Source: an uncultured virus (IMG/VR IMGVR_UViG_3300029925_000021) (lineage: Duplodnaviria > Heunggongvirae > Uroviricota > Caudoviricetes). From it: a DNA stretch of 64,000 bases. Shown in pieces: positions 15,668 through 55,729 of the stretch. The stretch spans positions 1 to 64,000 of IMG/VR virus record IMGVR_UViG_3300029925_000021; one strand, written 5' to 3'. The position numbers were made by a program, and so were the translations under genes. Under the pieces are notes generated by a model. The model worked only from the letters and a program-made list of their open reading frames with translations, had not been told where the DNA came from and did not search any database. How positions within the stretch are numbered: position 1 is the stretch's first letter; each line of letters begins with the position of its first letter.

Positions 15668-15772
15668 CTTCCCTGCGAGGTTTGTATAATGTAACAGTAG
15701 TTATACTGCTATACCTGACTCTTGTTAGCTGTACAGTGATGGTTACATCCAAATGACAAGCGCAGTGGTTAT

Positions 15773-16141: not shown

Positions 16142-16203
16142 CTTAGGTATTTATACCTTGGGGTCTTTAGCGGTATTTCCCCCACATGAAAGAAAAGCCT
16201 CTT

Positions 16204-16274
16204 GCTTCTGTGGTGAAACGGTATCACGCGAACTTGGTATGTTTGAGTCGAGGGTTCAACTCCCTCTGGAAGCT
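16204..16274 (+). tRNA. tRNA-Thr(GGT)
   Basis: GCTTCTG/TGGAAGC; CGAAC-TTGGTAT-GTTTG; GAGGG-TTCAACT-CCCTC. Confidence 0.88.
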
Positions 16275-16313
16275 CTATTAGTTAGATGCTTCACACGATT
16301 ATAGGAATAAGAT

Positions 16314-16806: not shown

Positions 16807-17436
16807 ATGCTAGACTCACAGGAAACTTTCACGGACCCATGCTTACGTCACCTCCCCACGGAACATGCGGAACACCTACAACAGTACATGGGTTACTATG
16901 CTAACCCAGTACCAATAGATGTCAAGCTAGTCAGCCCCGACGCTAAGATGCCCACGAAAGGTATAGTAGAAGAGAATGACCACATTACGTATGGTGGTAT
17001 TGATTTTATCTTTAACGTTGGCTATGATATTCATGTAGTGCAAGATGAAGGATGGCAGCAGGGATTGCATACCTACGAGGATAATAAGCGTGTTGACTAT
17101 CCATCTGAATTTACTTTGTACCCACACGAATCCTATCTGTTCTCTACTGGTATCAAAGTAGCCACACCTCCTAACTGGGGATTCTTGTTTCGTGACCGTA
17201 GTGGTATCGGCATGAAATGTATTCTTGTTACGGCAGGAGTCATCGAGGGAACGTATCGCAACGAGTGGAAGGTGAAGCTATTAAATATGGGGAAAGTACC
17301 TCACACGTTCCATGTGGGAGATAGAATCATACAGGCTGTACTAGTGCCTATCATTCCTTCGGTAATGAGAAAGGCAGAGGGCGATCTTCCTGAAAGTACT
17401 CGTGGAGAGAAAGGTTGGGGGTCAAGTGGTAGATAA
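16807..17436 (+). CDS. dut: trimeric dUTPase with an insertion
   Basis: GYDI, RSG, GVIE..YR, GDRIIQ and RGEKGWGSSG motifs. Confidence 0.88.
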   Translation: MLDSQETFTDPCLRHLPTEHAEHLQQYMGYYANPVPIDVKLVSPDAKMPTKGIVEENDHITYGGIDFIFNVGYDIHVVQDEGWQQGLHTYEDNKRVDYPSEFTLYPHESYLFSTGIKVATPPNWGFLFRDRSGIGMKCILVTAGVIEGTYRNEWKVKLLNMGKVPHTFHVGDRIIQAVLVPIIPSVMRKAEGDLPESTRGEKGWGSSGR

Positions 17437-28749: not shown

Positions 28750-29212
28750 CAAAATAGTAAAGCCCGTTAAGCGGCAGATAGCCTGGGAAAAATGGAGAGA
28801 TCCATTTGGATCAGACATAGAAGCACATGAGCTTCCTAATAGAACCCCAATAGAAGAAGATGACATAGATGATTTAATAGCAGAGAACGAACACGGCGAA
28901 GACATTGATGATCTATTAGATACTGAGAAAGAGGTTAAGATCGCGGTGATGACAACCTCGATGGGCATGATCCCCATGATGGAACACACTAGGGCTGGTG
29001 CTCTGTTTAACTTCTGGACTGCACACACCAACTTCCGCATGACTAAAACTCTCTTTGATATCATAGAAGATACTCACGGAGTAGAGTCTCTAGATGTAAT
29101 GACCAGCTATAGGTGGCGCATAGCAATAGGTAAAGCCTTCAAGAGCCATGTGGTCAAGCAGGCTCTGACACAAAACCTAAGTGCAACGCCTTTAGTTATA
29201 GAGGAGTCGTAA
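28742..29212 (+). CDS. hypothetical phage protein
   Basis: Coupled ORF; FNFW..HTNF motif. Confidence 0.7.
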   Translation: MFNKIVKPVKRQIAWEKWRDPFGSDIEAHELPNRTPIEEDDIDDLIAENEHGEDIDDLLDTEKEVKIAVMTTSMGMIPMMEHTRAGALFNFWTAHTNFRMTKTLFDIIEDTHGVESLDVMTSYRWRIAIGKAFKSHVVKQALTQNLSATPLVIEES

Positions 29213-29880
29213 TGCCAAGACGCAATCTGGATCAACAGCATTCTATTGTAGAAGCTGCGCATGAATACAACATCATGCTGGACAGTCGAGAAATCTTTCT
29301 GCATGGAGAAGTAGGTGAAGACCTGAGTAAGGGATTCCTCACCAACCTCCAGATTCTACTATCTCGTACAGATGAAGCTCCCATTACTATACATCAGTTT
29401 GGTTTAGGTGGAGACTGGTGCTCTGGCGTAGCTATCTTCGATGCTATAACACTGTGTCCATGCCCCATAGTCTTTGTGTGTCATGGTATCGCCGCTTCTA
29501 TGAGTAGTATTATCCCGATGGCATGTTCACAGAGAGAGCAAGCTTATTGTATCAATATGCCCAATTGTGACTGGTTGATCCACGACGGAACAACAGGGAT
29601 CATGCAGGATATGACTCACAAACAAGCTCAATCCTGGAGTGAGTGGGAGAAGAGACTAAAGGAAGACACTCTAGACTGGTACACTCTGTCATGTTCCGAA
29701 GGAGAGGTGTATAAAAACAGATCGGACAAACAGATTAGAGCTTCAATAAAACAGAAACTAGACTCTAAAGAGGACTGGTGGCTTACCGCGAGAGAAGCTG
29801 TAGAGCACGGATTTGCCGATGCTATACTAGGCGACGAAGGATTCGCGTCTTTGAAAGAGATCAGATCGGAATTCATATAA
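29212..29880 (+). CDS. ClpP-like protease
   Basis: REIFLHGEV; AASM (Ser); LIH (His); DWWLTA.EAV..GFAD. Confidence 0.85.
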   Translation: MPRRNLDQQHSIVEAAHEYNIMLDSREIFLHGEVGEDLSKGFLTNLQILLSRTDEAPITIHQFGLGGDWCSGVAIFDAITLCPCPIVFVCHGIAASMSSIIPMACSQREQAYCINMPNCDWLIHDGTTGIMQDMTHKQAQSWSEWEKRLKEDTLDWYTLSCSEGEVYKNRSDKQIRASIKQKLDSKEDWWLTAREAVEHGFADAILGDEGFASLKEIRSEFI

Positions 29881-29883
29881 TCC

Positions 29884-30537
29884 ATGAACGATATACTACT
29901 AGAGTATGCGTGCTATGACGAGATACTGACAGACGTAATCAAGGTAAATGTATTTAAGGCTCTGGACCTCGGAGCTAAGAGTATATCTGTACCGACAACA
30001 CACATGTCTGCCGTAGCAGCTTTCATTCCCGCTGGTATCACACTCTCCTGCCCCATAGACTATCCCAATGGTAGATCAGACACCGCTCTACGAGTACATT
30101 CCGTAGTGAAGTCGGTGAATCAGGGTGCTACATCAGTAGATATAGTGGCCAGTTCAGTGCTGTTCCGAAACCAAAAAGAAAAAGACTTCATACATGATCT
30201 CAAGACCTTAAAGGGTGTGGCAGACGAAAAAAGTGTCACGATGCGAGTCATGGCAGACTATCGTAAGACCGACGACGGTAAGCAATTCCGCAAGGTACTT
30301 GAACTTATTAAAGCTGCGGGAATTGAGTACGTTTACTGCTCTACTGGGTGCTACGTAGACGATGCTGTTGATAATGTCATCTTATGTAACATGGCACAGA
30401 AAGATTTCGGACTGTCTGCTATAGCCAATGGTAATATATATTTGCCTAAACATGTGGAAGCTGCCGAGGGTGCTAATCTCTTTGGTGTTAGGTTCAGTAA
30501 GATTAAAGCTATGGAAAACTGTGTAGTCGGTGTATAA
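29884..30537 (+). CDS. DeoC (deoxyribose-phosphate aldolase)-like TIM barrel, apparently lacking the Schiff-base Lys
   Basis: IDYPNG; GA..VDIV; YCSTG in place of KTSTG. Confidence 0.7.
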   Translation: MNDILLEYACYDEILTDVIKVNVFKALDLGAKSISVPTTHMSAVAAFIPAGITLSCPIDYPNGRSDTALRVHSVVKSVNQGATSVDIVASSVLFRNQKEKDFIHDLKTLKGVADEKSVTMRVMADYRKTDDGKQFRKVLELIKAAGIEYVYCSTGCYVDDAVDNVILCNMAQKDFGLSAIANGNIYLPKHVEAAEGANLFGVRFSKIKAMENCVVGV

Positions 30538-30538
30538 T
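30529..30538 (+). promoter_or_regulatory. GGTGTATAAT extended -10 promoter
   Basis: Repeated decamer upstream of a probable virion gene. Confidence 0.55.
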
Positions 30539-30605
30539 ATACTGAACAGGATTTACTCATAGGAATACTAGGATAAATGCGTTACCAAATATAGAAGGTA
30601 ACAAC

Positions 30606-31418
30606 ATGTCAAATTACACATTATTTCCCGACGCAGATAAGCGTCAAACAGACGACACGGCGATCACAGCCCTTACTTCTACCGTTATAGACGGTGGTAC
30701 TGGCTTCGCTCTCGGTATAGCTGTTCCTGCTGGTCCTCTGACCGCACATCTTCAACTTGGTGGACGCGCAGAAGTTCACGGTTCTCAAGTGATTCAAAGC
30801 CGCGATTTATTCGGTGCTTTCCATGCTGCTGATGTGACTCTTACATCTGTTGCGGATGACGGTAACGGTTTCGCTGATTACACTCTCGTTGGCCACTTAC
30901 TTAGTGTTGGCGATGTGATTAACGTCACTGGTTCTACTGCTGGTGGTGTTGACGGTGTTCAAAAAGTAACATCCGTTCCTGATGCCAACAGCATTGTTAC
31001 TGACCAACCATACGTTGCGTCTGCTACTGCTGGTGTATACAACATCGTGGCTGGTACTTTTGCTACCATGACAGAAGAAGCTTACATCATGCGAGGCTTT
31101 GCTCAAAGTGCCGCTGGTGGTCAGTACACTTACACTGGATTCGGTAACGACTTCGGTATTCGTAGAAGCATTCACAAGCTAGAGTTCATGAGAACTAACC
31201 GAGTGGCTACTGCTATTCGTGCTGGTTTCTGGGATATCTTTGCTGGTGTCTTCACTACCGCTCCTACTGTAGCAAACGACGAACCTACTATGGGTCAAGA
31301 TGATGCAGCTAATCCAACTTACGCTATTCCTGGCGAACTGGTTTATCGTGTATCTGGTCAGCAAGACGGTGCTACCTTCGGTATTATCCAAGATAACTAC
31401 GAAGCTAAAACTGGTTAA
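30606..31418 (+). CDS. probable virion structural protein
   Basis: G/A/T/V-rich beta-type sequence; GHLLSVGDVINVTG module; GGT/ACT/GCT codon bias; own promoter and terminator. Confidence 0.55.
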   Translation: MSNYTLFPDADKRQTDDTAITALTSTVIDGGTGFALGIAVPAGPLTAHLQLGGRAEVHGSQVIQSRDLFGAFHAADVTLTSVADDGNGFADYTLVGHLLSVGDVINVTGSTAGGVDGVQKVTSVPDANSIVTDQPYVASATAGVYNIVAGTFATMTEEAYIMRGFAQSAAGGQYTYTGFGNDFGIRRSIHKLEFMRTNRVATAIRAGFWDIFAGVFTTAPTVANDEPTMGQDDAANPTYAIPGELVYRVSGQQDGATFGIIQDNYEAKTG

Positions 31419-37073: not shown

Positions 37074-37655
37074 ATGACTAAACACGAACGAGCACTAATA
37101 TTAAACGCGGACTATACTCCGATAGGACTAGTTAGCTGGGAAAAAGCTATCACTTTAGACTTTAAGGGTCTGGTGAAGGTGGTAGATTTCTACAAGGGTG
37201 ACGAGATCAAGTGTTCTAGCGGGTTTCGTTGGCCAGTGCCAGCGGTTATAGTTCTAACCGAGTACAAGAGACCGAAGAAGAAGAGGATTCCGTTCTCCAG
37301 GAAGAACATCTTCATCAGAGACGGTCTAGTATGTCAGTACTGCAATAAGAGGTTTGATCCTTCTGATCTTACCTTTGACCACGTTGTTCCGAGGTCTAAG
37401 TGGAATGGCAGCGGTACTCCGACTCAGTGGAAGAATATTGTAACTTGTTGCTACCCATGTAACAACAAGAAGGGCAGTAAGCACCTAAAGGATACTGATA
37501 TGCAGCTAATGAACACTCCTAGAGAGCCTAATCCACATGGATTTGTACTAGGACTAGCTCCGTGGAGTAAATTGCAGCCAGAGTGGTTGCCGTACATTCC
37601 AAATAACTACAAAGAAATCATGCAAACTACAGATTTAGAAGGAAACGGTGTATAA
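37074..37655 (+). CDS. HNH endonuclease
   Basis: LILNADY; SRKNIFIRD...CQYC; TFDHVVPRS; NIVTCC..CN..KG. Confidence 0.92.
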   Translation: MTKHERALILNADYTPIGLVSWEKAITLDFKGLVKVVDFYKGDEIKCSSGFRWPVPAVIVLTEYKRPKKKRIPFSRKNIFIRDGLVCQYCNKRFDPSDLTFDHVVPRSKWNGSGTPTQWKNIVTCCYPCNNKKGSKHLKDTDMQLMNTPREPNPHGFVLGLAPWSKLQPEWLPYIPNNYKEIMQTTDLEGNGV

Positions 37656-38001: not shown

Positions 38002-38469
38002 ATGACCTGGGAACAAGATATGAAAAGAGGTCACATACAATCGGTTAAATCACTCAAAGACATACCTAATCGGTTCGACAGTATGCCAGAGAGAGAGTCT
38101 TGCAAGGAAGACGTAGAAATAGATAGGCTAATGCAACTTCCAGGTGATAAATTTCTCAAGGCTGGGAATATGGGTGTAACTACTGGAGAATCCAAGCCTC
38201 GCAAACGTCTATCGGAAGGTGTTCCAGTTCCAGATGGATACTACGAAGAAAACATAGGCTATGTTAGATTATTTTTCAAGAAAGAAGACCCACTGTGTCA
38301 ACTAGAAACAACATTAGTAAGGAAGCGCCGCACCAAGCTATTGTCTTGGTTAGGTACGAGAATTATCAACTGGATACGACGGGGCGCTGCACTGGTCGCC
38401 CTAGTACTGCGGAATCCAAAACATTTACTTTCACTGGCGCGACACATAAAGAAGCGCAAGAAAAAGTAG
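38002..38469 (+). CDS. hypothetical protein (C-terminus possibly read in another frame)
   Basis: GGGAG RBS; see finding on 38002-38507. Confidence 0.55.
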   Translation: MTWEQDMKRGHIQSVKSLKDIPNRFDSMPERESCKEDVEIDRLMQLPGDKFLKAGNMGVTTGESKPRKRLSEGVPVPDGYYEENIGYVRLFFKKEDPLCQLETTLVRKRRTKLLSWLGTRIINWIRRGAALVALVLRNPKHLLSLARHIKKRKKK

Positions 38470-38507
38470 ACGAATTTATAGAAAGGCTGAATACAAAAGA
38501 TGGCTAA
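38295..38507 (+). CDS. hypothetical protein or -1-frame extension of the 38002 ORF
   Basis: Natural-looking composition; stop overlaps ATG 38500. Confidence 0.5.
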   Translation: MSTRNNISKEAPHQAIVLVRYENYQLDTTGRCTGRPSTAESKTFTFTGATHKEAQEKVDEFIERLNTKDG

Positions 38508-38991
38508 GAGAAAATACGAAAGTGGTAGAGTAAACGTGAGAGACGCTGATAAGGCAATCTTTCGTCCTAACAGTCAAGTACAGGACGACTCTCCAGAACA
38601 GAATTTCAATACAGAGATATCTCGTGAGGTAGTGTGTTATACCATGTTTGGTAATCACGATTACATAGACGGGGACGACTATCCGATTCTTGGAGACTCC
38701 ACGGACGATAAGGGAGTGCAGACAGACGCAGAAAATAGGACTCTTTCCTTTGCTCGAACCGTCAGTACCAATAGTCGCAACCTAAAGTACTATGTTAAGA
38801 GTGCGGTAGGTGGCAAATTTTTCAATCCTTTAGGCATGGACGAAGGCAGACACAATAAGGTGCTCCATCATGCAATTGGAAACGAATTCACATATCACCA
38901 AGTAAACAAAAGTTCTTTTGATTACTATATTCAATTCTTGAAGACAAAGAACAAGGCGCATTTACTTAATGCAGAAAGAGAAGATTCGTAA
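38500..38991 (+). CDS. hypothetical phage protein
   Basis: Coupled ORF; FFNP...F..Y..FL.TKN...L..AER. Confidence 0.75.
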   Translation: MAKRKYESGRVNVRDADKAIFRPNSQVQDDSPEQNFNTEISREVVCYTMFGNHDYIDGDDYPILGDSTDDKGVQTDAENRTLSFARTVSTNSRNLKYYVKSAVGGKFFNPLGMDEGRHNKVLHHAIGNEFTYHQVNKSSFDYYIQFLKTKNKAHLLNAEREDS

Positions 38992-39563
38992 TGGCTAAAA
39001 AAGGTAAACTAAGCAACACGGATAAGATGGCTATCCAAAAGGGAGTGTCCAAGGGACTGACCGTAGACAGTATTGCTAACAGTCTAGATCGCACAACTAA
39101 GATAGTGGACAATTATATTAGCGGAGAGTTGAATGACCTACTGTCTACTATAGCTGGTGCTCAGATAGATAAGGACGAGGCACAAACTCCTGCCTCTTAT
39201 GATGAGTCTGATCTAAGTAAAAAGTATGACCACATAGACCCGCGTACTATAATACACGTAACTAATAAGCTTATTACGGCGGGACTTACCGAGAATGATA
39301 CTAGACAGCTTATAATCTCTGCTCTAGACAGTTCTAATGGCGATCCCAGTATGAATAACGACGAATTGTTATACACTAGATGTATATCTCGTATGAGTGC
39401 TGGCCACTTTATCACTAAGAAAACTCAGGGTGGTAGGGAAGGTGTGGCGATCATGTCTGAGGCTGCGTCTATCAGAGGAGATATGCACGCAAAGAAAAGC
39501 TTGGGTAACTCGCGTTCCTCACGAGGTAACGTGTTTAATCCGAAAACTGGAGAGTACATGTAA
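38991..39563 (+). CDS. hypothetical protein with N-terminal HTH-like segment
   Basis: GLTVDSIANSLDRT; GVAIMSEAAS..GD; TAATG coupling at both ends. Confidence 0.7.
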   Translation: MAKKGKLSNTDKMAIQKGVSKGLTVDSIANSLDRTTKIVDNYISGELNDLLSTIAGAQIDKDEAQTPASYDESDLSKKYDHIDPRTIIHVTNKLITAGLTENDTRQLIISALDSSNGDPSMNNDELLYTRCISRMSAGHFITKKTQGGREGVAIMSEAASIRGDMHAKKSLGNSRSSRGNVFNPKTGEYM

Positions 39564-39766
39564 TGTCGCAGCAGCCTTGCTACGAATATAAAGATACTCC
39601 AGAGTTCACAATAAATACACTTCTGGATAGTGGCAAATATCCACTTATGTATCACTATCAAGTAGACGGGAAGCCTTATACTTGTGCAGATATAGCCATA
39701 CGAAGGTGGGATACTATGCAGAGAAAGGAACGGGAGAGACTCTATGGGAAACGTATCGACTCCTAG
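39563..39766 (+). CDS. ERLYGK-array unit 1
   Basis: Ends RKERERLYGKRIDS. Confidence 0.8.
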   Translation: MSQQPCYEYKDTPEFTINTLLDSGKYPLMYHYQVDGKPYTCADIAIRRWDTMQRKERERLYGKRIDS

Positions 39767-39953
39767 CGTGAGTCAGTCATGGGCTCCTATTGCGAATCAG
39801 TATGACTGGATAGATCATTCATTCTCTACTAGAGAGCGTGAAGAAATATCTGCCGCACTTAATAAACGTTTGAAACGATGGGACCGTCGAGAGAAGAAAG
39901 AACAGGAGAGACTCTATGGCATCAAACCTATGGACTCCTATACCGTTAGTTAA
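39744..39953 (+). CDS. ERLYGK-array unit 2
   Basis: KKEQERLYGIK. Confidence 0.8.
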   Translation: MGNVSTPSVSQSWAPIANQYDWIDHSFSTREREEISAALNKRLKRWDRREKKEQERLYGIKPMDSYTVS

Positions 39954-40212
39954 TAATGCACCAGACGGAAAAGGTAACGGCCTTTCTAAGCTGGGTAATC
40001 AAGGTCCGTATGTTCAATACGCGAAGTTTCCCGTTCCCGTCGAGCTAGAATCTTTTATGACTAAGGTGCATATTCCAACATACGATATAAGTGATAATTT
40101 CAAATTTGTGCCACTCAAGAAAAATATGCTAACATCTGTTTCGTTTACTATGCGGCAGAATCGTAGAGAAGAAAAGGAACGGGAGCGTCTTTATGGCAAA
40201 CGCGACACGTAA
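39916..40212 (+). CDS. ERLYGK-array unit 3
   Basis: EKERERLYGKRDT. Confidence 0.8.
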   Translation: MASNLWTPIPLVNNAPDGKGNGLSKLGNQGPYVQYAKFPVPVELESFMTKVHIPTYDISDNFKFVPLKKNMLTSVSFTMRQNRREEKERERLYGKRDT

Positions 40213-40387
40213 TATTACAATGGACGATCACACTCAAATTGTGCGGTCTAAAGTAACTCTAAAAGACGACGGGAATCTACCCCGTAATGATGCTGAGTGG
40301 GATAAGATATTCGACGATATGAACAGAAGTACTCGTAGGTACTACAAGAATCGGGAGCGTCTATATGGCAAACGCTACACTAAATGA
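40193..40387 (+). CDS. ERLYGK-array unit 4
   Basis: YKNRERLYGKRYTK. Confidence 0.8.
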   Translation: MANATRNITMDDHTQIVRSKVTLKDDGNLPRNDAEWDKIFDDMNRSTRRYYKNRERLYGKRYTK

Positions 40388-40568
40388 TCTTATATGGGGA
40401 CCAAAGATAATCCCTATGCCTTTAGTACATACTGCCATAACCTTACCAGAACATGAAGCTCGTGTTAATCTTAGCATCTGGCTCGATAAGATAATGAACA
40501 CTCGTAATAGTTACTATAGAAGAAGAAGTCAAAAAGAACTGGAGCGTCTGTATGGCAAACGCATCTAA
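40365..40568 (+). CDS. ERLYGK-array unit 5
   Basis: QKELERLYGKRI. Confidence 0.8.
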   Translation: MANATLNDLIWGPKIIPMPLVHTAITLPEHEARVNLSIWLDKIMNTRNSYYRRRSQKELERLYGKRI

Positions 40569-40707
40569 TATACCAATTGCTGTATATGGACATGTTACCA
40601 ATACGGGTCATCTTATTCGTATGGTGAAGGTAGATGTGCATAAAAACTGTAGGGTAACAGCACGTAGAATAAAAAGAGAACAGGATAGACTTTATGGCAA
40701 ACAGTAA
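40552..40707 (+). CDS. ERLYGK-array unit 6 (51 aa, not in track)
   Basis: MANASNIP...KREQDRLYGKQ, translated by hand. Confidence 0.78.
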   Translation: MANASNIPIAVYGHVTNTGHLIRMVKVDVHKNCRVTARRIKREQDRLYGKQ

Positions 40708-40858
40708 TAAGCCACCAACCAAATCTGAAAATGCGAGGCGTGCCAAGCAACTTGCGCGTCAGTTGGAGAGAGCAAAGAATAGAGACCCTGTGAAGGCAAT
40801 GAAACGTAATTCACGTATGCTGATGAAAGAATGGGAGCGTCTGCATGGTAAACCATAG
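40694..40858 (+). CDS. ERLYGK-array unit 7 (54 aa, not in track)
   Basis: MANSNKPP...MKEWERLHGKP. Confidence 0.78.
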   Translation: MANSNKPPTKSENARRAKQLARQLERAKNRDPVKAMKRNSRMLMKEWERLHGKP

Positions 40859-41030
40859 AGACTTTCCATTAAGTATTTCCGCTAAGGCGAGAAGTTTACG
40901 GCTGCACACATCTATTATGCGTAGATGGAGATTAAAGAGAAAAGATGCTGAAAGACTATATGGTAAGGGTACTGCTCCAGTATTGAGTAAGCCTTTTGCT
41001 TTACGACTATCGAGGTATGTAAACCCATGA
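40845..41030 (+). CDS. ERLYGK-array unit 8 (motif internal)
   Basis: MRRWRLKRKDAERLYGKG plus a C-terminal extension. Confidence 0.78.
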   Translation: MVNHRDFPLSISAKARSLRLHTSIMRRWRLKRKDAERLYGKGTAPVLSKPFALRLSRYVNP

Positions 41031-41206
41031 TAACAGCAACAGATATACGTGTGAAACGTCAGTCAGCCATGATGCGACGGTGGCGCATAAAGAGAAAGAA
41101 CGCGGAAAGACTATACGGTAAAGGCTCAATTCCTAATCCTCGTAGAATCTTTGGTGGACGATTGAACATGGTTCGCACTATAAAGGACATATTCGGAAAA
41201 TGTTAA
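41027..41206 (+). CDS. ERLYGK-array unit 9 (59 aa, motif internal, not in track)
   Basis: MITATDIR...MRRWRIKRKNAERLYGKGSIPNP...; ATGA overlap with unit 8. Confidence 0.75.
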   Translation: MITATDIRVKRQSAMMRRWRIKRKNAERLYGKGSIPNPRRIFGGRLNMVRTIKDIFGKC

Positions 41207-41340
41207 ACAACAATAGTGCGTTGAGGTCTGCTATGTATGCGTTAAGACAGTCTTACCAAATAGTAGACAAGGCTACGAAAGCAAGGGAACGTAGAGAAAG
41301 AAAAGAACGGGAGAGACTTTATGGTAAGCAAGGCACATAA
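41200..41340 (+). CDS. ERLYGK-array unit 10 (46 aa, not in track)
   Basis: MLNNNSAL...RKERERLYGKQGT. Confidence 0.75.
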   Translation: MLNNNSALRSAMYALRQSYQIVDKATKARERRERKERERLYGKQGT

Positions 41341-41491
41341 CGATGCTTTTGACGCATTGATTCTTGCTGCGGCTAGAACGAAAGATTCTTGGGAATGTGT
41401 GACGAAAGCTATAAAGGTAATGAAGCGTGGCTTTGTAAAACTGGAACGTAAACGAATAAAGAATCAGGAGCGTCTGTATGGCAAACGTTAG
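41321..41491 (+). CDS. ERLYGK-array unit 11 (56 aa, not in track)
   Basis: MVSKAHND...IKNQERLYGKR. Confidence 0.78.
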   Translation: MVSKAHNDAFDALILAAARTKDSWECVTKAIKVMKRGFVKLERKRIKNQERLYGKR

Positions 41492-41627
41492 ATGGAATCC
41501 AGAACAATTCAAAGCGATTGATAAATACATGAAATCGTGTGTACGCAATTATGAAATACGTAAAATGGTTGATATACGTACAAAGAAGAAAGAAAGGGAG
41601 CGTCTGTATGGCAAACGTAACAGTTAG
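41478..41627 (+). CDS. ERLYGK-array unit 12 (49 aa, not in track)
   Basis: MANVRWNP...KKERERLYGKRNS. Confidence 0.78.
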   Translation: MANVRWNPEQFKAIDKYMKSCVRNYEIRKMVDIRTKKKERERLYGKRNS

Positions 41628-41790
41628 AATAGGTTCTACAATACCACATCCACAATCCGTACTTGGACTAGCTCAGCTTCCAGCACTAATAAGGTCCAAG
41701 AAAGACTTCGAAGTACTAAGAAGACATCAAATACAAATATGGCGTAAGCATTGGAGAGAGAAGGAGCGGGTGTATGGCAAAAGGAATTGA
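41608..41790 (+). CDS. ERLYGK-array unit 13
   Basis: MANVTVRI...WREKERVYGKRN; start at the junction ATG rather than 41539. Confidence 0.78.
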   Translation: MANVTVRIGSTIPHPQSVLGLAQLPALIRSKKDFEVLRRHQIQIWRKHWREKERVYGKRN

Positions 41791-41959
41791 TGTACATTAC
41801 AGCAACTGGAGCGTAGATGGCAAGTTGTATAAAAACGTTAACACCAAGATATATGCTCCATACGGACTAGATATGGTTCCTTACCTAAGTATGAGCCTTA
41901 AACAAATAAGAAAATGTAAGACAAATTGGGAGCGTTTATATGGCAAAGGAAGTAACTGA
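41774..41959 (+). CDS. ERLYGK-array unit 14
   Basis: KTNWERLYGKGSN. Confidence 0.8.
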   Translation: MAKGIDVHYSNWSVDGKLYKNVNTKIYAPYGLDMVPYLSMSLKQIRKCKTNWERLYGKGSN

Positions 41960-42434
41960 TAAATCAAGATACCCCTCCAAGTATAGCCCTAGCGAGTACG
42001 TCACTGGAGCACAGTACATCATCGAACTCGTGTGTGAGTACCGAGCTAGACATTTGAAGATAGACTTACCTAGACAATTCTGGAAGCTTCCAGAGTGGGC
42101 TAGTTATTTCTCTGCTCAAACTAGGTCTGTTCATAAACTATTAAGCAGTTTCGATGAAAGGGCCATAATAAATACAGTTAAAAATAGCAAGGTCAGGAGT
42201 TTACTGCCGAGGTGGATACCTTCTGCCGTGGCTAAGGAACAGAAAAAAATAGATGGAGCAAAAAAACAGAAAGAACAAGAAAATATCAACAAACCTAAGA
42301 GCAAGAAGGGTATAATAGATATACCGACGAGACGCACTGTCCACCACGGCACTTCTGCTATGGACAAGCTCTTAGCACTTGATATTGAGGCATACGAAAA
42401 TGGCAAAGAAGACTGCGAAGAAAAAAGAGACTAA
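41940..42434 (+). CDS. hypothetical phage protein starting at the last array junction
   Basis: YPSKYS...AQYIIE..C...LP..FW...W; lacks ERLYGK. Confidence 0.8.
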   Translation: MAKEVTDKSRYPSKYSPSEYVTGAQYIIELVCEYRARHLKIDLPRQFWKLPEWASYFSAQTRSVHKLLSSFDERAIINTVKNSKVRSLLPRWIPSAVAKEQKKIDGAKKQKEQENINKPKSKKGIIDIPTRRTVHHGTSAMDKLLALDIEAYENGKEDCEEKRD

Positions 42435-43476
42435 AGAAGAACCTAAAAAGGTACTGACGATAGAAGACAAGTTGAAGAAGAAGTTTGGAGATCAAGCATT
42501 TACTACTGGTCGTTACATTACCGAAGCAAAGAAAGTTATAGTGCCAGTTAGTCCCGTTATAGATTGTATGCTCGGTGGAGGAATTCCATTCGGGTCTTTT
42601 GTGATACCTACTGGCCCTCCCAAGGTCGGTAAGACCGTTACGGCACTAGATATGGCTGCTACTGCCCTGAAAATACCTTCCGAATTTGAAAACAAGCGTC
42701 ACCTATACTTCTTCAATATAGAAGGTAGGCTTAACGCTAGAGACCTAGCTGGTATCCACCACATGATACCACATATAGACGAAGATGTTACTGTTATAGG
42801 ATCGTATCCTGGTAAAATCTATACCGCAGAAGACTATTTAGACATAGGTGAACAACTTATTAATGAGAAGCCTGGATGCATCTTTATATTTGACTCCTTC
42901 TCTCAGCTATGTAGCAAATCTGGCAGAGCAAACGAATGGGACGGAAAAGCTTATCGAGACGATGTACCTAAAATGTTATCGCAGTTCTGCAAGAGAATCT
43001 CTAACGTCATACCTATCAACAAGTCTATAGTAGTAGGAATTACACACCAGATAGCAAACACTGGCTTCGGATTTTCGGCATGGGCAGAAGCGTCTGGCAC
43101 AAAGATTCAATATCAGGTAGACGTAAAACTAAAAGCATGGAGTAACGACTGGAAGGACGGAGAGACTGATACTGTTATAGGTAAGAATATCGAATGGCAG
43201 TGTCTATGTTCTCCGCTACTGAACGGTCCTAATGTGCCAAAGTGTACGTCTAAGTTTAGATACGGGTACGGACTAGACAAGCCTTTAGAATTAGTGAATA
43301 TGGCTATAGATTTAGGTATTATTCGTAAGGCTGGGTCTTGGTATTATTTTCCAGACGAAAGCAAGGTGCAAGGAATCGAATCCGCGAGACCAAGACTAAT
43401 GGAAGATGACGTACTGTATCAAACTGTCAATGAGAAATACCGTGACATGATGGGACTGCCTAGTGTTAGTATATGA
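42400..43476 (+). CDS. RecA/UvsX-like recombinase
   Basis: LGGGIP.G; Walker A GPPKVGKT; Walker B IFDS; G..IQY; I.KAGSWY; start ATG 42400. Confidence 0.9.
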   Translation: MAKKTAKKKETKEEPKKVLTIEDKLKKKFGDQAFTTGRYITEAKKVIVPVSPVIDCMLGGGIPFGSFVIPTGPPKVGKTVTALDMAATALKIPSEFENKRHLYFFNIEGRLNARDLAGIHHMIPHIDEDVTVIGSYPGKIYTAEDYLDIGEQLINEKPGCIFIFDSFSQLCSKSGRANEWDGKAYRDDVPKMLSQFCKRISNVIPINKSIVVGITHQIANTGFGFSAWAEASGTKIQYQVDVKLKAWSNDWKDGETDTVIGKNIEWQCLCSPLLNGPNVPKCTSKFRYGYGLDKPLELVNMAIDLGIIRKAGSWYYFPDESKVQGIESARPRLMEDDVLYQTVNEKYRDMMGLPSVSI

Positions 43477-43858
43477 TCTAGAAAATAATGAAACCAAGTG
43501 GCAGATGGCAGGCAAGGAAGTTACACTCGATACTAGACCGCGATCAGCGTTGCATGTAAAGGCACGAGGTCTAATAAAAGAGAGGTTCCCTACACTCCTA
43601 GTATTAGAAGAAGTACCTATAAAAACACATAGGACTAAAACCCTGTACCTGGACTTCTATCTACCACTGAGAAAATTAGTGGTGGAGGTCCACGGCCAGC
43701 AACATTATAAGTATAGTAGTCAGTTCCATTCCACGGCACTGGAGTTTTTGAAGCAACAGAAAAATGACGAAGAAAAGATACTGTGGTGTGAGATTAACGG
43801 CATAGAAATTTTAGTACTACCTTACGATACGCAGAAAGATTGGAAAGAACAGTTATGA
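43463..43858 (+). CDS. PD-(D/E)XK (Vsr/DUF559-like) endonuclease
   Basis: LDFYLP...VEVHG.QHY...D..K..WC..NGI. Confidence 0.8.
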   Translation: MLVYDLENNETKWQMAGKEVTLDTRPRSALHVKARGLIKERFPTLLVLEEVPIKTHRTKTLYLDFYLPLRKLVVEVHGQQHYKYSSQFHSTALEFLKQQKNDEEKILWCEINGIEILVLPYDTQKDWKEQL

Positions 43859-49668: not shown

Positions 49669-50486
49669 GAGTATTGGTAACTGGAGGTACTGGATTCTTA
49701 GGTAGGGCATTGATACGGAGTTTGCCTTGTCCAGATGATTGTATTACGGTCGTCGCTCGTAACGAGGGTAAACTGACTGACTTACAGAATTGTCATCCTT
49801 GTATAAACATTGTTTGTGGAGACATAGCCGATCCCCACATAGCAGAAAAAGCCACTAGAAATATAGATAAGGTGTATCATCTAGCAGCTTTTAAGCATGT
49901 AGGATTAGCGGAAAAGGATACGTTTCAATGTATCAATACTAATATTATTGGAACCATGAACCTACTAGAGAAAGCTTGGGTCTCCAGCTTCGTATATATC
50001 AGTACAGATAAAGCAGCTAGTGTAACTGGAGTGTACGGAGCGTCTAAATTTATAACAGAACGTCTAGTGCAAGAATATCAGAGAATGAGACCTGCAAATA
50101 GATATACTATCGTTCGTTATGGAAACGTTTTGTATTCTACTGGGTCAATTCTACCAAAATGGAAAAAGGCTTTGCAAGCAGGAGAAGAGATAGTCATAAC
50201 TGATCCAGAAGCTACTAGATTCTTTTGGACCGTAGACGAAGCTATCAGGACTGTGTTTGATGCTGAAAGAATGTCACAAGATGCAAACGCTTGGTGTCCA
50301 TATATAAAAAGTATTAGCATGGGCAACTTACTTACAGCTATGCAAAACAAGTACGGCGAAGCAACAAGCATTAAGAAGATTGGACTCCAAGCTGGGGAAA
50401 ATCTTCATGAGAAAATGTTTACAGACGGACTAGACAGTAGTGAAGTAGAACAATATACTATAGAAGAAATAATGGAAAAGATATGA
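49665..50486 (+). CDS. PseB/CapD-like UDP-GlcNAc 4,6-dehydratase
   Basis: TGGTGFLG; HLAAFKHV; STDKA; YGASK; RYGNV; TRF; GENLHE. Confidence 0.9.
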   Translation: MRVLVTGGTGFLGRALIRSLPCPDDCITVVARNEGKLTDLQNCHPCINIVCGDIADPHIAEKATRNIDKVYHLAAFKHVGLAEKDTFQCINTNIIGTMNLLEKAWVSSFVYISTDKAASVTGVYGASKFITERLVQEYQRMRPANRYTIVRYGNVLYSTGSILPKWKKALQAGEEIVITDPEATRFFWTVDEAIRTVFDAERMSQDANAWCPYIKSISMGNLLTAMQNKYGEATSIKKIGLQAGENLHEKMFTDGLDSSEVEQYTIEEIMEKI

Positions 50487-52390
50487 CGTACTTCCCACTA
50501 CACGTACACTCGCACTTTAGTCTACAGGACGGACTTAGTACACCTGAGCAAATATCTACTCGCTGTGAGGAGATAGGAGTAGAAGGTTCTGCAATCACAG
50601 ACCACGGAACAATGTCTGGACATATCCAGTTCCTGTCAGAGATGAAGAAGTCAAAGGAAAAGTCGGCACAAAAAGCGTTGCTAGGATGCGAATTCTACGT
50701 ATGTAAGGAAGACGCAGAGATACAAACCGAGAGAAATAGAAAACTATCCGACCTGTGTATCATAGCACGTAACAAGGACGGATGGAGAGATATGGTCCAG
50801 ATGATGTCTAGGGCTAATGATAAGAATACCTTCTACCATAAGCCACGACTAGACCTCGACAGGATAGCAGAATTTACAACTAGCGGAAATGTAATGGCTT
50901 TCAGTGGTCATGTTGGATCTTGTATGGCCAACATACTATTCGATGAAGAGGGAGAGATCTCTAGTCAGTGGAGGATAGAAGGATGTCGTTTAGCTAGGTG
51001 GTTTGAAAACGCCTTTGGTAAGGACAACTTCTTTCTAGAGGTACAGTTGATAGACTCGGCCACTTTTCCCAGACATAAGATTATTGCAGAGTGTATTAGA
51101 GCCATCAGTAAAGACACGGGAATTCCATGTGTGGCAACACCGAACTCTCACTACGCCAGAAAAGAAGACGCTGTAGATCAACAGATTCTTATCTGCTCTA
51201 AGATGAACTCTACCTTGCAACAAGCAAGTAAGGCATCGTTTGGAGTTAACGGATTCTTTAGGTGTTCACAGTATCATATACCATCGTTCGTAGAGATGCA
51301 AGAGTTTCATACGGCGGAAGAGTTAGACAATACATTACTGTTTGCATCTAGAGTGGATGACTACAAGGGGATATTAAAGAGTCCTATCCTACCTAACTTT
51401 CCATGTCCTGACGGAATGAATGCCGACTCATATTTGAGGCACTTATGTAAAGAAGGGTGGCGTAATAAGGTTCAGGGAGTAGTCAATCCTGCGAAGTTTC
51501 AGGAGTATGGAGATAGAGTTAAGAGGGAGTTGGAAGTACTACAGGGAGCTGGACTTTCTAGTTACTTCCTTATTGTAGCAGACATCATTAATTTTATTCG
51601 TAGAAACAAATGGCTTGCAGGCCCAGGTAGAGGGTCTGCTGCTGGTAGTCTAGTATCCTACTTGATGGATATCACAGCTATTGATCCTATGCCTTTTGGA
51701 CTACTCTTTGAGAGGTTCTATAACGCTGGTAGAAATACAGCGGACCACATATCTATGCCTGATGTTGATATGGACGTGCCTAAGTATGCACGAGAGCATG
51801 TCCTCAAGTATATGAGAAAAAAGTACGGAGAAGATCATGTTGGGCAGATGGTAACATTCCAGACGATTAAGGGACGTGGAGCTTTAACAGACGTGCTTCG
51901 TGCTCACGGAGGTATATCCTTTCAAGAGATTAAGATGGTGACTAAGAATATCGTAGAAGAACATAAGATCACAGACGAACTCCAGAAGATGAAACAGGAC
52001 ACAGGAGAATCTTCTATCTTACAATGGTGTCTAGAACACACTCCAAAGAAGTTAGACCAGTGGTGTAGTATTGGCGATGACGGTAACCTCATCGGTCCTC
52101 TTGCTCAACGCTTTACTCAGGCAATGAGGCTAGAAGGGACAAAGACCGTACAGTCTAAGCATCCAGCGGGAGTAGTTATAGCACCAGAACCATTGGGCAA
52201 TATGTGTCCTATGATTTTCGATGTTGAAAGCGGTCAGAAAGCTGCGGCGTTTGAGATGGAAGACCTTGAAGCTGTAGGAGGTCTAAAGGTTGACGTACTA
52301 AGTATTACGTCACTAGACAAGGTCATGGGAGTTTGTCAAGGTTTAGAGTTTGGAGACATACATGAAATTTCAGGAACTATCTGTGAGTAG
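50483..52390 (+). CDS. dnaE: DNA polymerase III alpha, N-terminal part (PHP + palm)
   Basis: HVHSHFS; TDHG; GRGSAAGS; LLFERF; MPDVDMD; HPAGVVI; LKVDVLS. Confidence 0.92.
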   Translation: MTYFPLHVHSHFSLQDGLSTPEQISTRCEEIGVEGSAITDHGTMSGHIQFLSEMKKSKEKSAQKALLGCEFYVCKEDAEIQTERNRKLSDLCIIARNKDGWRDMVQMMSRANDKNTFYHKPRLDLDRIAEFTTSGNVMAFSGHVGSCMANILFDEEGEISSQWRIEGCRLARWFENAFGKDNFFLEVQLIDSATFPRHKIIAECIRAISKDTGIPCVATPNSHYARKEDAVDQQILICSKMNSTLQQASKASFGVNGFFRCSQYHIPSFVEMQEFHTAEELDNTLLFASRVDDYKGILKSPILPNFPCPDGMNADSYLRHLCKEGWRNKVQGVVNPAKFQEYGDRVKRELEVLQGAGLSSYFLIVADIINFIRRNKWLAGPGRGSAAGSLVSYLMDITAIDPMPFGLLFERFYNAGRNTADHISMPDVDMDVPKYAREHVLKYMRKKYGEDHVGQMVTFQTIKGRGALTDVLRAHGGISFQEIKMVTKNIVEEHKITDELQKMKQDTGESSILQWCLEHTPKKLDQWCSIGDDGNLIGPLAQRFTQAMRLEGTKTVQSKHPAGVVIAPEPLGNMCPMIFDVESGQKAAAFEMEDLEAVGGLKVDVLSITSLDKVMGVCQGLEFGDIHEISGTICE

Positions 52391-53282: not shown

Positions 53283-54014
53283 TTGAAGAACTATATATGT
53301 GTTTACGATTTTGAGACAGATAGTCCTAAGCCAGAAACGTGCGAGCCAGTACAGATTGCTGCTCTCATGCTTCACCCTCACACTTTGAATATAGTAGAAG
53401 ATTCGGAATTCGTATCGTACATGCGTCCAGAGGGGATAGACGATAAGAATTACTTGAAGAAGAACTACGACACAATTAAGTGGCACGCTACAAACTATCA
53501 TCCAGACTTCTATGAGTTAAAGAGTGGAGATCAGGATGAAGCTGTAATGGGTATCTTGCAGAAATGGAAAGATGCTCCCAACCAGAAACAGGTGTGGAGT
53601 GACTTCTGTACCTATCTGCTCAAGTACAATAACAATCAGGCTAGACGTAGTAAGTTCTCCGCTCCAATACGTGCGGGTGCAAACATCAGACGCTTTGATA
53701 ATACTATCGTAGATCGTATGTGTACGAGGTTTGGTACTGTTACTAAGGATGGGGAGCAGAAGATTTTTCAACCTCGTGACGTAGTAGACATTATGGAACT
53801 AGCCTTCTACTGGTTTGAGAATCTGCCAGAACCCAAGGCTTACAATATGGGTGCTTTGAGAGAATTCTTTGGAATGTCCGATGAAGGTGCTCATGATGCT
53901 CTCGTTGATATCAGAGACGAAGCAGCAATGATTCAGAAGTTCTTGAGACTACACAGGTCTATAGCGGCCAAGGTTAAATTTCGTGGGGCAATGATTCCCA
54001 GGTTGAGTTCATAG
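53283..54014 (+). CDS. DEDDh 3'-5' exonuclease (DnaQ-like)
   Basis: YDFET; N...FD; HDALVD. Confidence 0.9.
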   Translation: MKNYICVYDFETDSPKPETCEPVQIAALMLHPHTLNIVEDSEFVSYMRPEGIDDKNYLKKNYDTIKWHATNYHPDFYELKSGDQDEAVMGILQKWKDAPNQKQVWSDFCTYLLKYNNNQARRSKFSAPIRAGANIRRFDNTIVDRMCTRFGTVTKDGEQKIFQPRDVVDIMELAFYWFENLPEPKAYNMGALREFFGMSDEGAHDALVDIRDEAAMIQKFLRLHRSIAAKVKFRGAMIPRLSS

Positions 54015-54025: not shown

Positions 54026-55729
54026 ATGGTTGAGATTAAAGACGGATACGCTCATTACGAATGTGGGTGTAAGTTTGAAGTAACGCAAAATGGTCCACCG
54101 ATTAGACTTAGGGTAGACCCTCGTATAGAGACCTTACCTAAAGACTGTAGTAGAACGTGGAATCTATTCGCTACTGGTAATACTAAAGGTGTATTTCAGC
54201 TTGAGACCAGATTCGGACAGCAGTATTCAAAGAAGCTGATGCCCGAAAACATAGAGCAGTTAGCTGCGTTGATGGCTATCCTACGACCTGGATGTACGCA
54301 AAGTTATCGAGGCAGTAAGAACATTGCTGAGCACTACATAGACAGAAAGAATGGCGTAGAAAAGGTAGAGCAGTTTCATGAAGCACTAGCACCTATTCTT
54401 GTAGGAACTTTTGGTGAGATGATTTACCAGGAACAGGCTATGCAGATAGCTCAACTCATAGCTGGCTTCACCTTACAACAGGCTGACGTACTACGTAAGG
54501 CTATTGGTAAAAAGAAAGCCGACGTTATGGCCGAGGTTAAGATTGAATTTATAGCAGGCTGCAAGTCCGTAGGTATAGTAACTAAGGAAGAAGCGGAAGA
54601 AATCTTTGGGTGGATCGAGAAGTCACAGAGATACTCGTTCAACAAGAGTCATGCAATCTGTTATGCGTTTAATGCATATCAGACAGCATACTTCAAGGCT
54701 CACTTTCCCGTAGCTTTCTTTACTTCTTACTTATGGTATGCTAAAGACAAGTCAAAGAAGTTCGACGAGATTAAATTACTCATAGCCAATACTAACCAGA
54801 TGGGTATTAAGGTTCTGCCTCCTGATTTTAATAGCGACAACTCTAGATTTAAGAGAGTGTACGATAAGATCAGCGACAATTATAACGATTACGACGACAG
54901 TATCTACTTTGGCTTCGGTGACATAAAGAGTGTTGGAGAGAACCGTGTCAAGAAAATGAGTAATGCTATATACATAGCGGAAACATCTCTAGATAAGCAT
55001 AGAAGTAAGTGGACCTGGATAGAGTTTCTAGTACATTTCTCTCAGCAGGTAGACAGTACCATAATGAAAGGTATCATAGAAGCTGGAGCACTGTCTCACT
55101 TTAAGATAGCTCGTACTAAGATGTTGTTTGATTACGAACAGTACTCAGTACTAACTAAGAAGGAACAGGCATGGATTAAACAGAATCTCACTGCCGATAA
55201 TATCATAGAACTACTGGAAAAAGCTGTAGCTCCATATAGTAAAGGAGGTAAGAAGATTAATGGTCCTTGCAATAACTACAAGAGAGTACAGAAACTAAAG
55301 GATATAATAGTACTAGCTAAAGATCCTCCTTATTCAATGGAGGACTCTACAGACTGGATAGCCCGTATAGAGGAAGCTAGATTAGGAGTATCTATCACAG
55401 CATCTGTACTGGACTCATGTAAGGACTTAGATCAGGCTAATTGTACCATACTAGAGTTCAATAAGCAACAGGAGAAGTCTAGTGGAATCTTCATAGCTTG
55501 TCAGATAGAGGAGATCAGGACGCATATCACTAAGACTAAGCAAGAAGAGATGGCTTTTGTGACCGTCAACGACCAGGAGGACTCCCTAAGCTGTGTGGTT
55601 TTCCCGAAAGATTGGCCAGAGATCAAAGCTTGTGGAGCATGTGTGACAGAAAACACTGTTATTATAAGCGGAGACAGGTCGAAAAATAAAGATAGCTTTA
55701 TTATTAAGAAAATGTGGCAGTTAACTTGA
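54026..55729 (+). CDS. dnaE: DNA polymerase III alpha, C-terminal part (fingers, HhH, OB)
   Basis: TKGVFQLE; ILRPG; IYQEQ; LRKAIGKK; YSFNKSHA; IK.VG; MAFVT..D. Confidence 0.92.
   Translation: MVEIKDGYAHYECGCKFEVTQNGPPIRLRVDPRIETLPKDCSRTWNLFATGNTKGVFQLETRFGQQYSKKLMPENIEQLAALMAILRPGCTQSYRGSKNIAEHYIDRKNGVEKVEQFHEALAPILVGTFGEMIYQEQAMQIAQLIAGFTLQQADVLRKAIGKKKADVMAEVKIEFIAGCKSVGIVTKEEAEEIFGWIEKSQRYSFNKSHAICYAFNAYQTAYFKAHFPVAFFTSYLWYAKDKSKKFDEIKLLIANTNQMGIKVLPPDFNSDNSRFKRVYDKISDNYNDYDDSIYFGFGDIKSVGENRVKKMSNAIYIAETSLDKHRSKWTWIEFLVHFSQQVDSTIMKGIIEAGALSHFKIARTKMLFDYEQYSVLTKKEQAWIKQNLTADNIIELLEKAVAPYSKGGKKINGPCNNYKRVQKLKDIIVLAKDPPYSMEDSTDWIARIEEARLGVSITASVLDSCKDLDQANCTILEFNKQQEKSSGIFIACQIEEIRTHITKTKQEEMAFVTVNDQEDSLSCVVFPKDWPEIKACGACVTENTVIISGDRSKNKDSFIIKKMWQLT

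Follow-up and report, generated by a model that had tools for sequence, protein, structure and literature searches.

A chain of 14 small phage genes linked by a peptide motif that doubles as the start signal of the next gene

We analysed the first 64,000 nucleotides (nt) of the IMG/VR virus record IMGVR_UViG_3300029925_000021 (hereafter, the window) and found an array of 14 consecutive small genes, U1 to U14, at positions 39563-41959 of the + strand. Their products have mostly unrelated front parts, and all carry a basic helical tail ending in ERLYGK or a close variant. In 12 of the 14 copies, the codons of this motif also supply the Shine-Dalgarno sequence and start codon of the next gene. 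We regard the array as a lineage-specific, tandemly expanded and translationally coupled family of mini-proteins, a reading to which we assign a probability of about 0.6. The tail would probably act as a docking module, composed of a helix and a hook, that brings all 14 proteins to one common partner, because the fixed E-R-L-Y-G-K with an upstream Trp on the helix resembles a specific interface. The full record is a contig of 76,292 bases, judged 51% complete, from an uncultivated phage of about 150 kb.

Fourteen small genes share one tail

Rows of tiny ORFans are common in large phages and usually go unannotated; here, one peptide links 14 of them. Combining a listing of open reading frames (ORFs) with a motif scan yielded 14 consecutive ORFs of 46-98 amino acids (aa), six of them under the 60-aa cutoff, in agreement with an original prediction made for this DNA from its letters alone. 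Every unit has a basic helix of about 20 residues ending in [ED]R[LV][YH]G[KI]. This tail is amphipathic and rich in Arg, Lys and Glu, often has a Trp about 11 residues ahead of the Leu, and is capped by RLYGK. The one-residue variants that the prediction had listed are all present (ERLYGI in U2, ERLHGK in U7 and ERVYGK in U13), and U6 has DRLYGK. Twelve of the 14 motifs sit 2-10 residues before the stop codon, and those of U8 and U9 are internal, 21-28 residues from the C-terminus.

Searching all six frames of the window with the regular expression [ED]R[LVIM][YHF]G returned 15 matches, 14 of which lay in the array, all on the + strand; the only match outside it was DRLFG at 27296. The same expression matched 0.61 times on average, and at most 4 times, in 100 shuffles. 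Its nucleotide form, GAGMGNSTNYAYGG, matched 10 times against 0.10 expected. Neither the remainder of the 76,292-base record nor the additional 28 kb of a near-identical record of 93,666 bases contained another copy of the motif. These counts bear out the common C-terminal tail of the prediction, which also held that the N-terminal parts are unrelated. The front parts range from 8 to 71 aa, and only two of 105 pairs exceeded z = 4 relative to shuffles when the external homologue P0135, described below, was included (U1-U10 and U5-P0135). The N-termini have in common only M-A/G/V-N/K/S, because the junction between units imposes these residues. The isoelectric point (pI) is at least 9.2 in 13 of 14 units, and the net charge of the tail is +3 to +14.

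Given an alignment of the paralogues, AlphaFold2 (AF2) predicted for U1 a single helix over residues 41-61 that ends at RLY and is followed by G-K-x(1-4). The mean predicted local distance difference test score (pLDDT) was 92 for residues 51-60, and the front part was poorly predicted. Two copies of the U1 tail (residues 30-67), modelled as a complex with the same alignment, scored 0.02 against a mark of 0.42.

All features of the array region are encoded on the + strand. The upstream flank is B (38991-39563), a conserved gene for a 190-aa protein of no family with an N-terminal helix-turn-helix-like region; it ends ...GEYM*, and its stop overlaps the start of U1 in ATGTAATG. The first four units are U1 (39563-39766, 67 aa, tail ...RRWDTMQRKERERLYGKRIDS), U2 (39744-39953, 69 aa, tail ...KRWDRREKKEQERLYGIKPMDSYTVS), U3 (39916-40212, 98 aa, tail ...RREEKERERLYGKRDT), which has the longest front part (71 aa), and U4 (40193-40387, 64 aa, tail ...STRRYYKNRERLYGKRYTK). 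They are followed by U5 (40365-40568, 67 aa, tail ...YYRRRSQKELERLYGKRI), the unit homologous to P0135, U6 (40552-40707, 51 aa, tail ...ARRIKREQDRLYGKQ) and U7 (40694-40858, 54 aa, tail ...SRMLMKEWERLHGKP). In U8 (40845-41030, 61 aa) the internal motif MRRWRLKRKDAERLYGKG is followed by 21 aa, and in U9 (41027-41206, 59 aa) the internal motif MRRWRIKRKNAERLYGKG is followed by 28 aa. Next come U10 (41200-41340, 46 aa, tail ...ARERRERKERERLYGKQGT), U11 (41321-41491, 56 aa, tail ...LERKRIKNQERLYGKR) and U12 (41478-41627, 49 aa, tail ...IRTKKKERERLYGKRNS). U13 (41608-41790, tail ...IWRKHWREKERVYGKRN) has 60 aa when read from the junction ATG at 41608; the ORF listing gives a longer, GTG-started frame from 41539, and the unit corresponds to protein-search match P0008. 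The junction of U14 (41774-41959, 61 aa, tail ...RKCKTNWERLYGKGSN) is the start of C (41940-42434), the conserved downstream flank, which begins at the ATG within the last ERLYGK motif and encodes 164 aa of no family without the tail. The UvsX/RecA-like recombinase gene (phrog_97) follows at 42400-43476. Each unit was identified from its ORF and motif, with further evidence from codon phase for all 14, from the predicted helix for U1 and from homology for U5.

The motif is read in two frames

In 12 of the 14 motifs, as originally predicted, the next ORF begins, in the +1 frame, at the T-ATG-G within Tyr-Gly; gene C starts at the final one of these 12 ATGs. A Shine-Dalgarno sequence, GGAG, lies 7 nt upstream of the junction ATG and is built from the G-GAG of the preceding codon and Glu, such that the tail codons G-GAG-CGT/AGA-CTN-TAT-GGC-AAA double as the Shine-Dalgarno sequence and ATG of the next gene. 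Ribosome-binding sites of the GGAG type are also found at many other genes of the same phage. The two exceptions are the motif at 40950 in U8, whose ATG opens only an 8-codon frame, and that at 41105 in U9, where Tyr is encoded by TAC and ACG stands in place of the embedded ATG. Motifs are spaced 115-277 nt apart, close to the 115-280 nt first estimated, and 11 of the 13 spacings equal 1 mod 3, as a succession of +1 steps demands. At 11 internal junctions the adjoining ORFs overlap by 14-38 nt, and at the two atypical ones by 4 and 7 nt. All 14 ORFs are open exactly from one junction to shortly beyond the next. The +1 ATG with GGAG at 12 of 14 junctions supports the chained translation logic of the prediction.

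We next considered which of the two readings is selected. The codons used in the upstream frame are GAG/GAA/GAT, AGA/CGT/CGG, CTN/TTA/GTG, TAT/TAC/CAT, GGC/GGT/GGG and AAA/AAG/ATC. By itself, the combination of GGAG, a 7-nt spacer and ATG-G forces just E-x-x-[YHND]-[GAVDE] in this frame. Within the free spacer, Arg is kept in 14 of 14 motifs (AGA six times, CGT seven times and CGG once) and Leu in 13 of 14, through CTC, CTT, CTA, CTG and TTA. Both motifs that lack start function retain ERLYGK, and an alignment of the units shows about 12 residues upstream of the motif conserved as Arg, Lys or Glu, often with Trp. Since Arg and Leu are kept through synonymous codons, the non-starting motifs keep the peptide, and the upstream residues are basic, the ERLYGK peptide is under selection in its own right, with the start signal layered on top. 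Selection on both readings is thus directly visible in the choice of codons.

The region from -13 to +3 of the 12 junction starts was predicted to be more base-paired than that of 57 other starts in the genome (0.61 vs. 0.47, Mann-Whitney p = 0.0013), although this difference may partly reflect the G+C-richer sequence of the junctions. Neither promoter-like sites (11 vs. 14.0 ± 3.8 in shuffles) nor terminator-like sites (4 vs. 4.2 ± 2.0) were enriched in the array, and none of either kind occurred at the junctions. An exact 21-nt run is common to three junctions, and 9-11 junctions align over 41-53 nt. U8 and U9 share a 61-nt repeat (D3) at 75% identity. Inverted repeats amount to four pairs, weak and scattered. 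Separately, positions 40853-40867, right after the U7/U8 junction, hold a 15-nt reverse-complement copy (87%) of GGAGAGACTCTATGG, the junction sequence of U1/U2 and U2/U3.

The units have gene-like codon usage and almost no relatives

Codon usage pointed to the annotated phase as the best one in 14 of 14 units and in 17 of 17 control genes, although the test is favoured by the stop-free frame having been chosen. A profile of the 14 units, compared with 1.84 billion representative proteins, returned 15 hits, namely the 14 units and P0135. A word-indexed homologue search with the same profile gave 9 matches, all to the window's own proteins. P0135 is a protein of 70 aa ending in ...RRYYKEQERLYGKRT, encoded on a 693-nt contig outside this phage. 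It is 38% identical to U5 over 64 aa (E = 5e-8 in a single comparison), a similarity that is full-length and includes the front part; U5 is the only unit with such a homologue outside this phage. A search for loci related to P0135 gave only an off-frame match inside the capsid gene of an unrelated virus.

The prediction had recognised no named system, and our searches agree with it, as Pfam, PHROGs, PADLOC, PDB and Rfam contained no family for the array. In Pfam, the units gave only sub-threshold noise, with no hit at E up to 1. The best E-value of a unit in PHROGs was 0.031, to unrelated families matched by one unit each, and none matched phrog_458. PADLOC gave no match for the units, and Rfam none in the array at E up to 1. 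The best PDB sequence match (E = 1.4) was to the B. subtilis replication terminator protein, which contains TEQERLYGLK by chance. Scores in the ESM Atlas were all below 0.9, and the model of U5 from the Atlas itself had a pLDDT of 0.54. Against 50,697 phage records, tblastn found no match to U3 or U5 and seven chance hits to U1 (E = 0.4-0.9), and blastn of the array found none. A literature search found no paper containing the string ERLYGK, and shorter strings led to ordinary words or an unrelated CK2 peptide.

Two leads concerning the tail were considered and dropped. The C-terminus of ribosomal protein bS21 ends in ...RLY, but the whole 76-kb record gave no PF01165 match at E up to 10. As a source of the tail, we considered the small conserved gene at 38295-38507; it ends in ...FIERLNTKDG*, and its homologues in relatives end variously (FLDRIY, FMEKIKN..., FIEDVKN...).

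The array is stable and restricted to one lineage

A second IMG/VR record was identical to the first over 17,074 of 17,074 bases. We also compared Logan contigs from four runs of two studies, one of the runs probably being the source, across positions 38900-42500. All pieces covering the array were identical, with no joints that skip or add units, though contigs drop rare variants and could hide gain or loss of units at low frequency. Given the same sequence in the second record and in four runs of two studies, the array is not an assembly artefact.

In the probable source run, two contigs bridge the array and break at 40140-40169. A minor contig of 208 nt in this run (X1; depth 7 vs. 72) agrees with positions 40140-40203 except for 5 differences in 64 nt, and diverges beyond them. 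It reads ...ERLYGKRS* in one frame and MANAREILETQSS... in the next (from 30 letters). Since it shares one junction and then continues with other sequence, a related variant of the array, with a different or diverged following unit, co-occurs in the probable source sample. This contig and P0135 are the only variation seen.

Scanning IMG/VR for the DNA pattern of the motif matched 31 stretches, among which only the second record of this phage had several matches. The same scan of metagenomes matched at least 118 stretches, and that of species genomes at least 120; among the matches listed, neither contained a second array, all being single, chance-like and inside unrelated genes.

The array lies among replication, recombination and nucleotide-metabolism genes, with structural genes on the opposite strand, and its immediate neighbours are B, C, UvsX and an HNH endonuclease. 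PHROG annotation covered 68 ORFs of the window. The record encodes tRNAs, ribonucleotide reductase, thymidylate synthase, PhoH, the UvsX-like recombinase, a DnaB-like helicase, primase, a split DNA polymerase, a single-stranded DNA-binding protein (SSB) and a sigma factor. No cultivated relative was found, identities in phage records reaching at most 33.5% for the polymerase and 25% for UvsX. Using UvsX as an anchor, we fetched 34 related loci with UvsX identities of 33-61%. The gene order A (38500), B (38991), C (41940) and UvsX is kept in 21 of them, with homologues of B always upstream of C and UvsX.

Eight of 12 distinct relatives have B and C next to each other (3-33 nt apart). The remaining four have one or two ORFs at this site, with no relation to one another or to the array (loci L033, L039, L040 and L044; ORFs of 146 aa, of 56 and 68 aa, Cys-rich, of 175 aa and of 159 aa). 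Across this uncultivated clade of phages, the B-C boundary is an insertion hot spot. A regular expression for ERLYG-type tails matched none of the 34 loci. A hidden Markov model (HMM) of the tail, run over 13,779 six-frame ORFs from the relatives and from the remainder of both records, had a best E-value of 0.015, which was spurious. Because the site in relatives is empty or holds unrelated ORFs, and the tail is absent from them, the array is specific to this lineage and fills a site prone to insertion. Two genes of the HNH or homing-endonuclease type lie nearby, at 37074-37655 (about 2 kb upstream of the array) and 43463-43858 (about 1.5 kb downstream).

How the array may have arisen and what the tail may do

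Under the mini-protein family reading, each unit would bring with it a translation start for whatever comes next. The row would be transcribed together with neighbouring genes, as suggested by the lack of enrichment in promoter-like and terminator-like sites and the absence of an Rfam match. It would then be translated as one coupled chain in which the upstream ribosome opens the next start, and the greater predicted base-pairing of junction starts fits such coupling, though composition may contribute. The family may have grown by unequal recombination between junctions, which share the 21-nt run and the 41-53-nt alignments, with each exchange adding or removing whole expressible units. Each protein would combine a front part that diverges fast with the conserved tail. 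As for the partner to which the tail docks, a structured nucleic acid or other polyanion is a tentative candidate, a host protein hub a somewhat weaker one, and the interior of the phage's own procapsid an unlikely one that we treat as a lead only.

Several observations weigh against this interpretation. Among the sequencing runs listed, no RNA run contains the array sequence, and so we can only infer that the units are translated; the codon-phase and base-pairing comparisons have the biases given above. The units match no family, fold or solved structure (Pfam, PHROGs, PADLOC, PDB, ESM Atlas). The internal motifs of U8 and U9 imply that a free C-terminus is not required, and U9, U10 and U12 are little beyond the tail. 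The view of a variable head on a constant tail could thus be wrong, and the array may just raise the dose of one peptide. Lastly, the Logan contigs of the four runs revealed no gain or loss of units in any sample, which leaves expansion by unequal crossing-over unobserved.

Alternative explanations

The alternative that survives best, though we consider it unlikely, is that the units are nucleic-acid-binding host-takeover proteins, in which the Arg/Lys helix with its Trp and Tyr binds RNA or DNA and the front parts modulate the host early. Both the tail charge of +3 to +14 and the high pI agree with this idea, as does the position of the array among genes for replication, recombination and nucleotide metabolism. 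The units are also ORFans, as phage early genes typically are. However, the fixed hexapeptide, with its invariant Glu, Leu, Tyr and Gly, suggests a specific interface rather than plain charge, and the Pfam and PDB searches gave no similarity to any nucleic-acid-binding family.

Rather less probable is that the helix and RLYGK form a procapsid-docking signal, by which the 14 small basic proteins would enter the head and be injected together with the DNA. In T4, the capsid-targeting sequence is N-terminal and is removed by the prohead protease. PMC3012670 describes the internal proteins of T-even phages (IPI, IPII, IPIII and polymorphic relatives) as a diverse set of small, basic, unrelated proteins that have only a terminal targeting sequence in common, encoded at a locus that differs between related phages. 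Similarly, according to PMC5644958, the 80alpha scaffolding protein (SP) and SaPI1 CpmB bind the coat protein by a C-terminal amphipathic helix and a short basic-hydrophobic hook with a conserved RIIK. The array tail resembles this helix-and-hook architecture, with the helix of U1 predicted at residues 41-61, G-K-x(1-4) after it, and 12 of 14 motifs near the stop; as in 80alpha, more than one protein has it, which would let them reach a common site. Procapsid docking is therefore a concrete and testable reading of the tail. The likeness has its limits, in that the part shared by the array units is C-terminal rather than N-terminal, has no sequence similarity to the T4 peptide and doubles as the next start signal.

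The family phrog_458, annotated as 'protease' but occupying the scaffold position in epsilon15- and BPP-1-like phages, provides a further parallel. In an unrelated podophage contig (L005, 3300-6370), the phrog_458 protein encoded directly upstream of the major capsid gene ends ...SLTERLYGKV*, and a Lys-rich protein of 71 aa, encoded two genes downstream of the capsid gene, ends ...HERLYGKEI*. In Nostoc phage Nsp-JY18 (L186, 3090-3896), the homologue ends ...PPEERLYGKTTPTSKRG*, and exact ERLYGK occurs in both. The peptide x-[RKLM...]-Y-[GASPN] lies 3-12 residues before the C-terminal end in all 23 homologues examined, 16 of which have YG. In BPP-1 (L188, 1573-2938), both bbp18 and bbp20 end ...[RQ]RLY[AG]AS[NS]M..., and in epsilon15 (L187, 2135-4951) both gp6 and gp10 have ...AFYP... 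near their ends. In L005, BPP-1 and epsilon15, a second small protein of the head module thus repeats the C-terminal peptide of the scaffold, and such repetition of a scaffold-type ending within one phage looks like a shared docking peptide. Among the papers listed in one literature search on the BPP-1 scaffold, none described its C-terminus or this shared peptide.

Against these parallels, L005 was itself found by the ERLYGK DNA-pattern search, so its exact match was partly selected, and the likeness across phrog_458 comes down to about Y-G plus one residue (two or three residues). The phrog_458 motif follows a Pro/Ala-rich linker rather than a basic helix, and the array units have no homology to scaffolds, phrog_458 included, beyond a few motif residues. 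Whereas phrog_458 genes lie directly upstream of the major capsid gene, the array lies between B and C in the replication block, on the strand opposite to the structural genes. In the near-identical record, more than 40 kb separate the array from the head module, which is encoded on the other strand and none of whose own proteins has a tail-like ending (portal, 96-aa, 530-aa and 150-aa proteins, and a 336-aa capsid candidate). This capsid candidate does not match phrog_212.

In its fullest form, which we judge slightly more doubtful than procapsid docking by itself, the tail would be a C-terminal loading signal by which 14 mini-proteins enter the procapsid and are injected with the DNA as effectors of the first minutes, making the array a self-extending chain for expression and addressing. 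Any unit duplicated or recombined at a junction would then be translated and addressed automatically. A phage clade without cultivated members would thereby have its own version of the T4 internal-protein system, with a tag that is C-terminal and dual-coded.

The original prediction favoured an active cassette-like diversity array, in which inserts captured between junctions are automatically expressed and tagged and the content differs between genomes. With such a junction, any in-frame insert would indeed gain both expression and the tag, the site between B and C takes different ORFs in different relatives, and the 208-nt contig shares one junction yet has other sequence after it, still with a tail end and a new start. 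We nevertheless find active capture improbable. All pieces covered in four runs of two studies were identical and free of joints, and no second array appeared in IMG/VR or among the listed metagenome (at least 118) and genome (at least 120) loci. The comparison between relatives that had been suggested was negative in the 34 loci, which have neither the tail nor a differently composed array. Integron-type gene cassettes come with an integrase and bounding recombination sites; in contrast, the PHROG annotation of the window includes no integrase, no integrase-like or other capture enzyme lies beside the array, and the weak inverted repeats are no more than the four scattered pairs. The homology between U5 and P0135 also extends through the front part, as vertical descent predicts, and ordinary descent of a gene family therefore fits better than free capture of inserts.

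Far less probable is that the units are RiPP-like precursors (ribosomally synthesised and post-translationally modified peptides), as the prediction had also considered, with the conserved C-terminal part serving as the follower that a modifying enzyme recognises. A row of small ORFs, each with a constant and a variable part, would suit such a role, and the window has a radical-SAM gene at 17402-18511. However, that gene is 21 kb away in a cluster for nucleotide and sugar modification. Instead of a modifying enzyme with its recognition sequence, or a protease, transporter or cyclase, the array adjoins B, C, UvsX and the HNH endonuclease, and the units are long Lys/Arg/Glu helices without Cys/Ser/Thr-rich cores.

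Equally improbable, and largely refuted by the codon pattern, is that the repeat is a translation signal at the RNA level only, with ERLYGK as a by-product and the small ORFs having no function as proteins. The signal does force part of the motif, and other genes of the phage carry the same GGAG-type sites. Ordinary coupling of overlapping phage genes likewise places the downstream start and Shine-Dalgarno sequence inside the end of the upstream gene, as occurs at many junctions of this phage and its relatives. The array differs in having 12 successive copies of one junction of about 20-40 nt, which, read in the upstream frame, encodes a conserved functional peptide. A signal acting on RNA alone would leave unexplained the Arg (14 of 14) and Leu (13 of 14) kept through synonymous codons, the dozen basic residues farther upstream, the two non-starting motifs that keep ERLYGK, and the 14 of 14 frames that are open with gene-like codon phase. 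Least probable of all is that serial +1 frameshifts at the junctions produce one long repeat protein, or that frameshift errors or an assembly artefact have split what is really a single gene: the +1 advance in 11 of 13 steps and the Shine-Dalgarno-like box upstream of every shift point, a feature also used in prfB frameshifting, are outweighed by an ATG of its own at optimal distance from GGAG in each working junction, separate starts after the two junctions without ATG, zero-frame stops 2-5 codons past the motif (10 in U2) rather than at the shift site, and identical sequence in two IMG/VR records and four runs.

Relation to known systems

The promoter-early stem-loop (PeSL) cassettes in the hyperplastic regions of T4-type phages resemble the array as rows of small ORFans between core genes with a repeated element at their boundaries, an element that, according to PMC2839356, carries expression signals and can mediate recombination. 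The PeSL element is an intergenic unit of promoter and terminator, in which a sigma-70-like promoter and a stem-loop terminator stand between genes. The array repeat, in contrast, is coding, provides a ribosome-binding site and start codon, is selected at the protein level, and joins genes that overlap. We conclude that the array belongs to none of the T4 internal proteins, PeSL cassettes, scaffold endings or ordinary coupling as such. It is akin to the ORFan rows of hyperplastic regions and to sets of phage proteins that share a tag, and its distinctive feature is that the codons of the conserved peptide are also the start signal of the next gene.

So far, the array has been seen in one phage lineage only, judging from the sequence collections searched. 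Its junction shows a way for a phage gene family to expand with every copy expressed. If the tail is an address label, a single peptide gives a handle on all 14 proteins and their partner, and could be used as a compact tag of natural origin to load or target proteins.

Other features of the window

Elsewhere in the window, the DNA polymerase (phrog_405) is encoded in two genes, 50483-52390 and 54026-55729, covering profile positions 42-611 and 623-1064. Between the halves lie an ORF of 145 aa and an exonuclease-subunit-like gene (53283-54014). There are ten tRNA genes, at 105-178 and 14388-16275, nine of which are clustered (Val, Ser twice, Met, Gln twice, Ile-tat, Trp and Thr). An RNA-ligase gene with an HNH-like N-terminal region occupies 8457-9464. 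Finally, a ClpP/S49-type 'head maturation protease' gene followed by ORFs of 217 aa and 270 aa of no family spans 29212-31418 in the nucleotide-metabolism block, a long way from the head module, which lies outside the window on the other strand.

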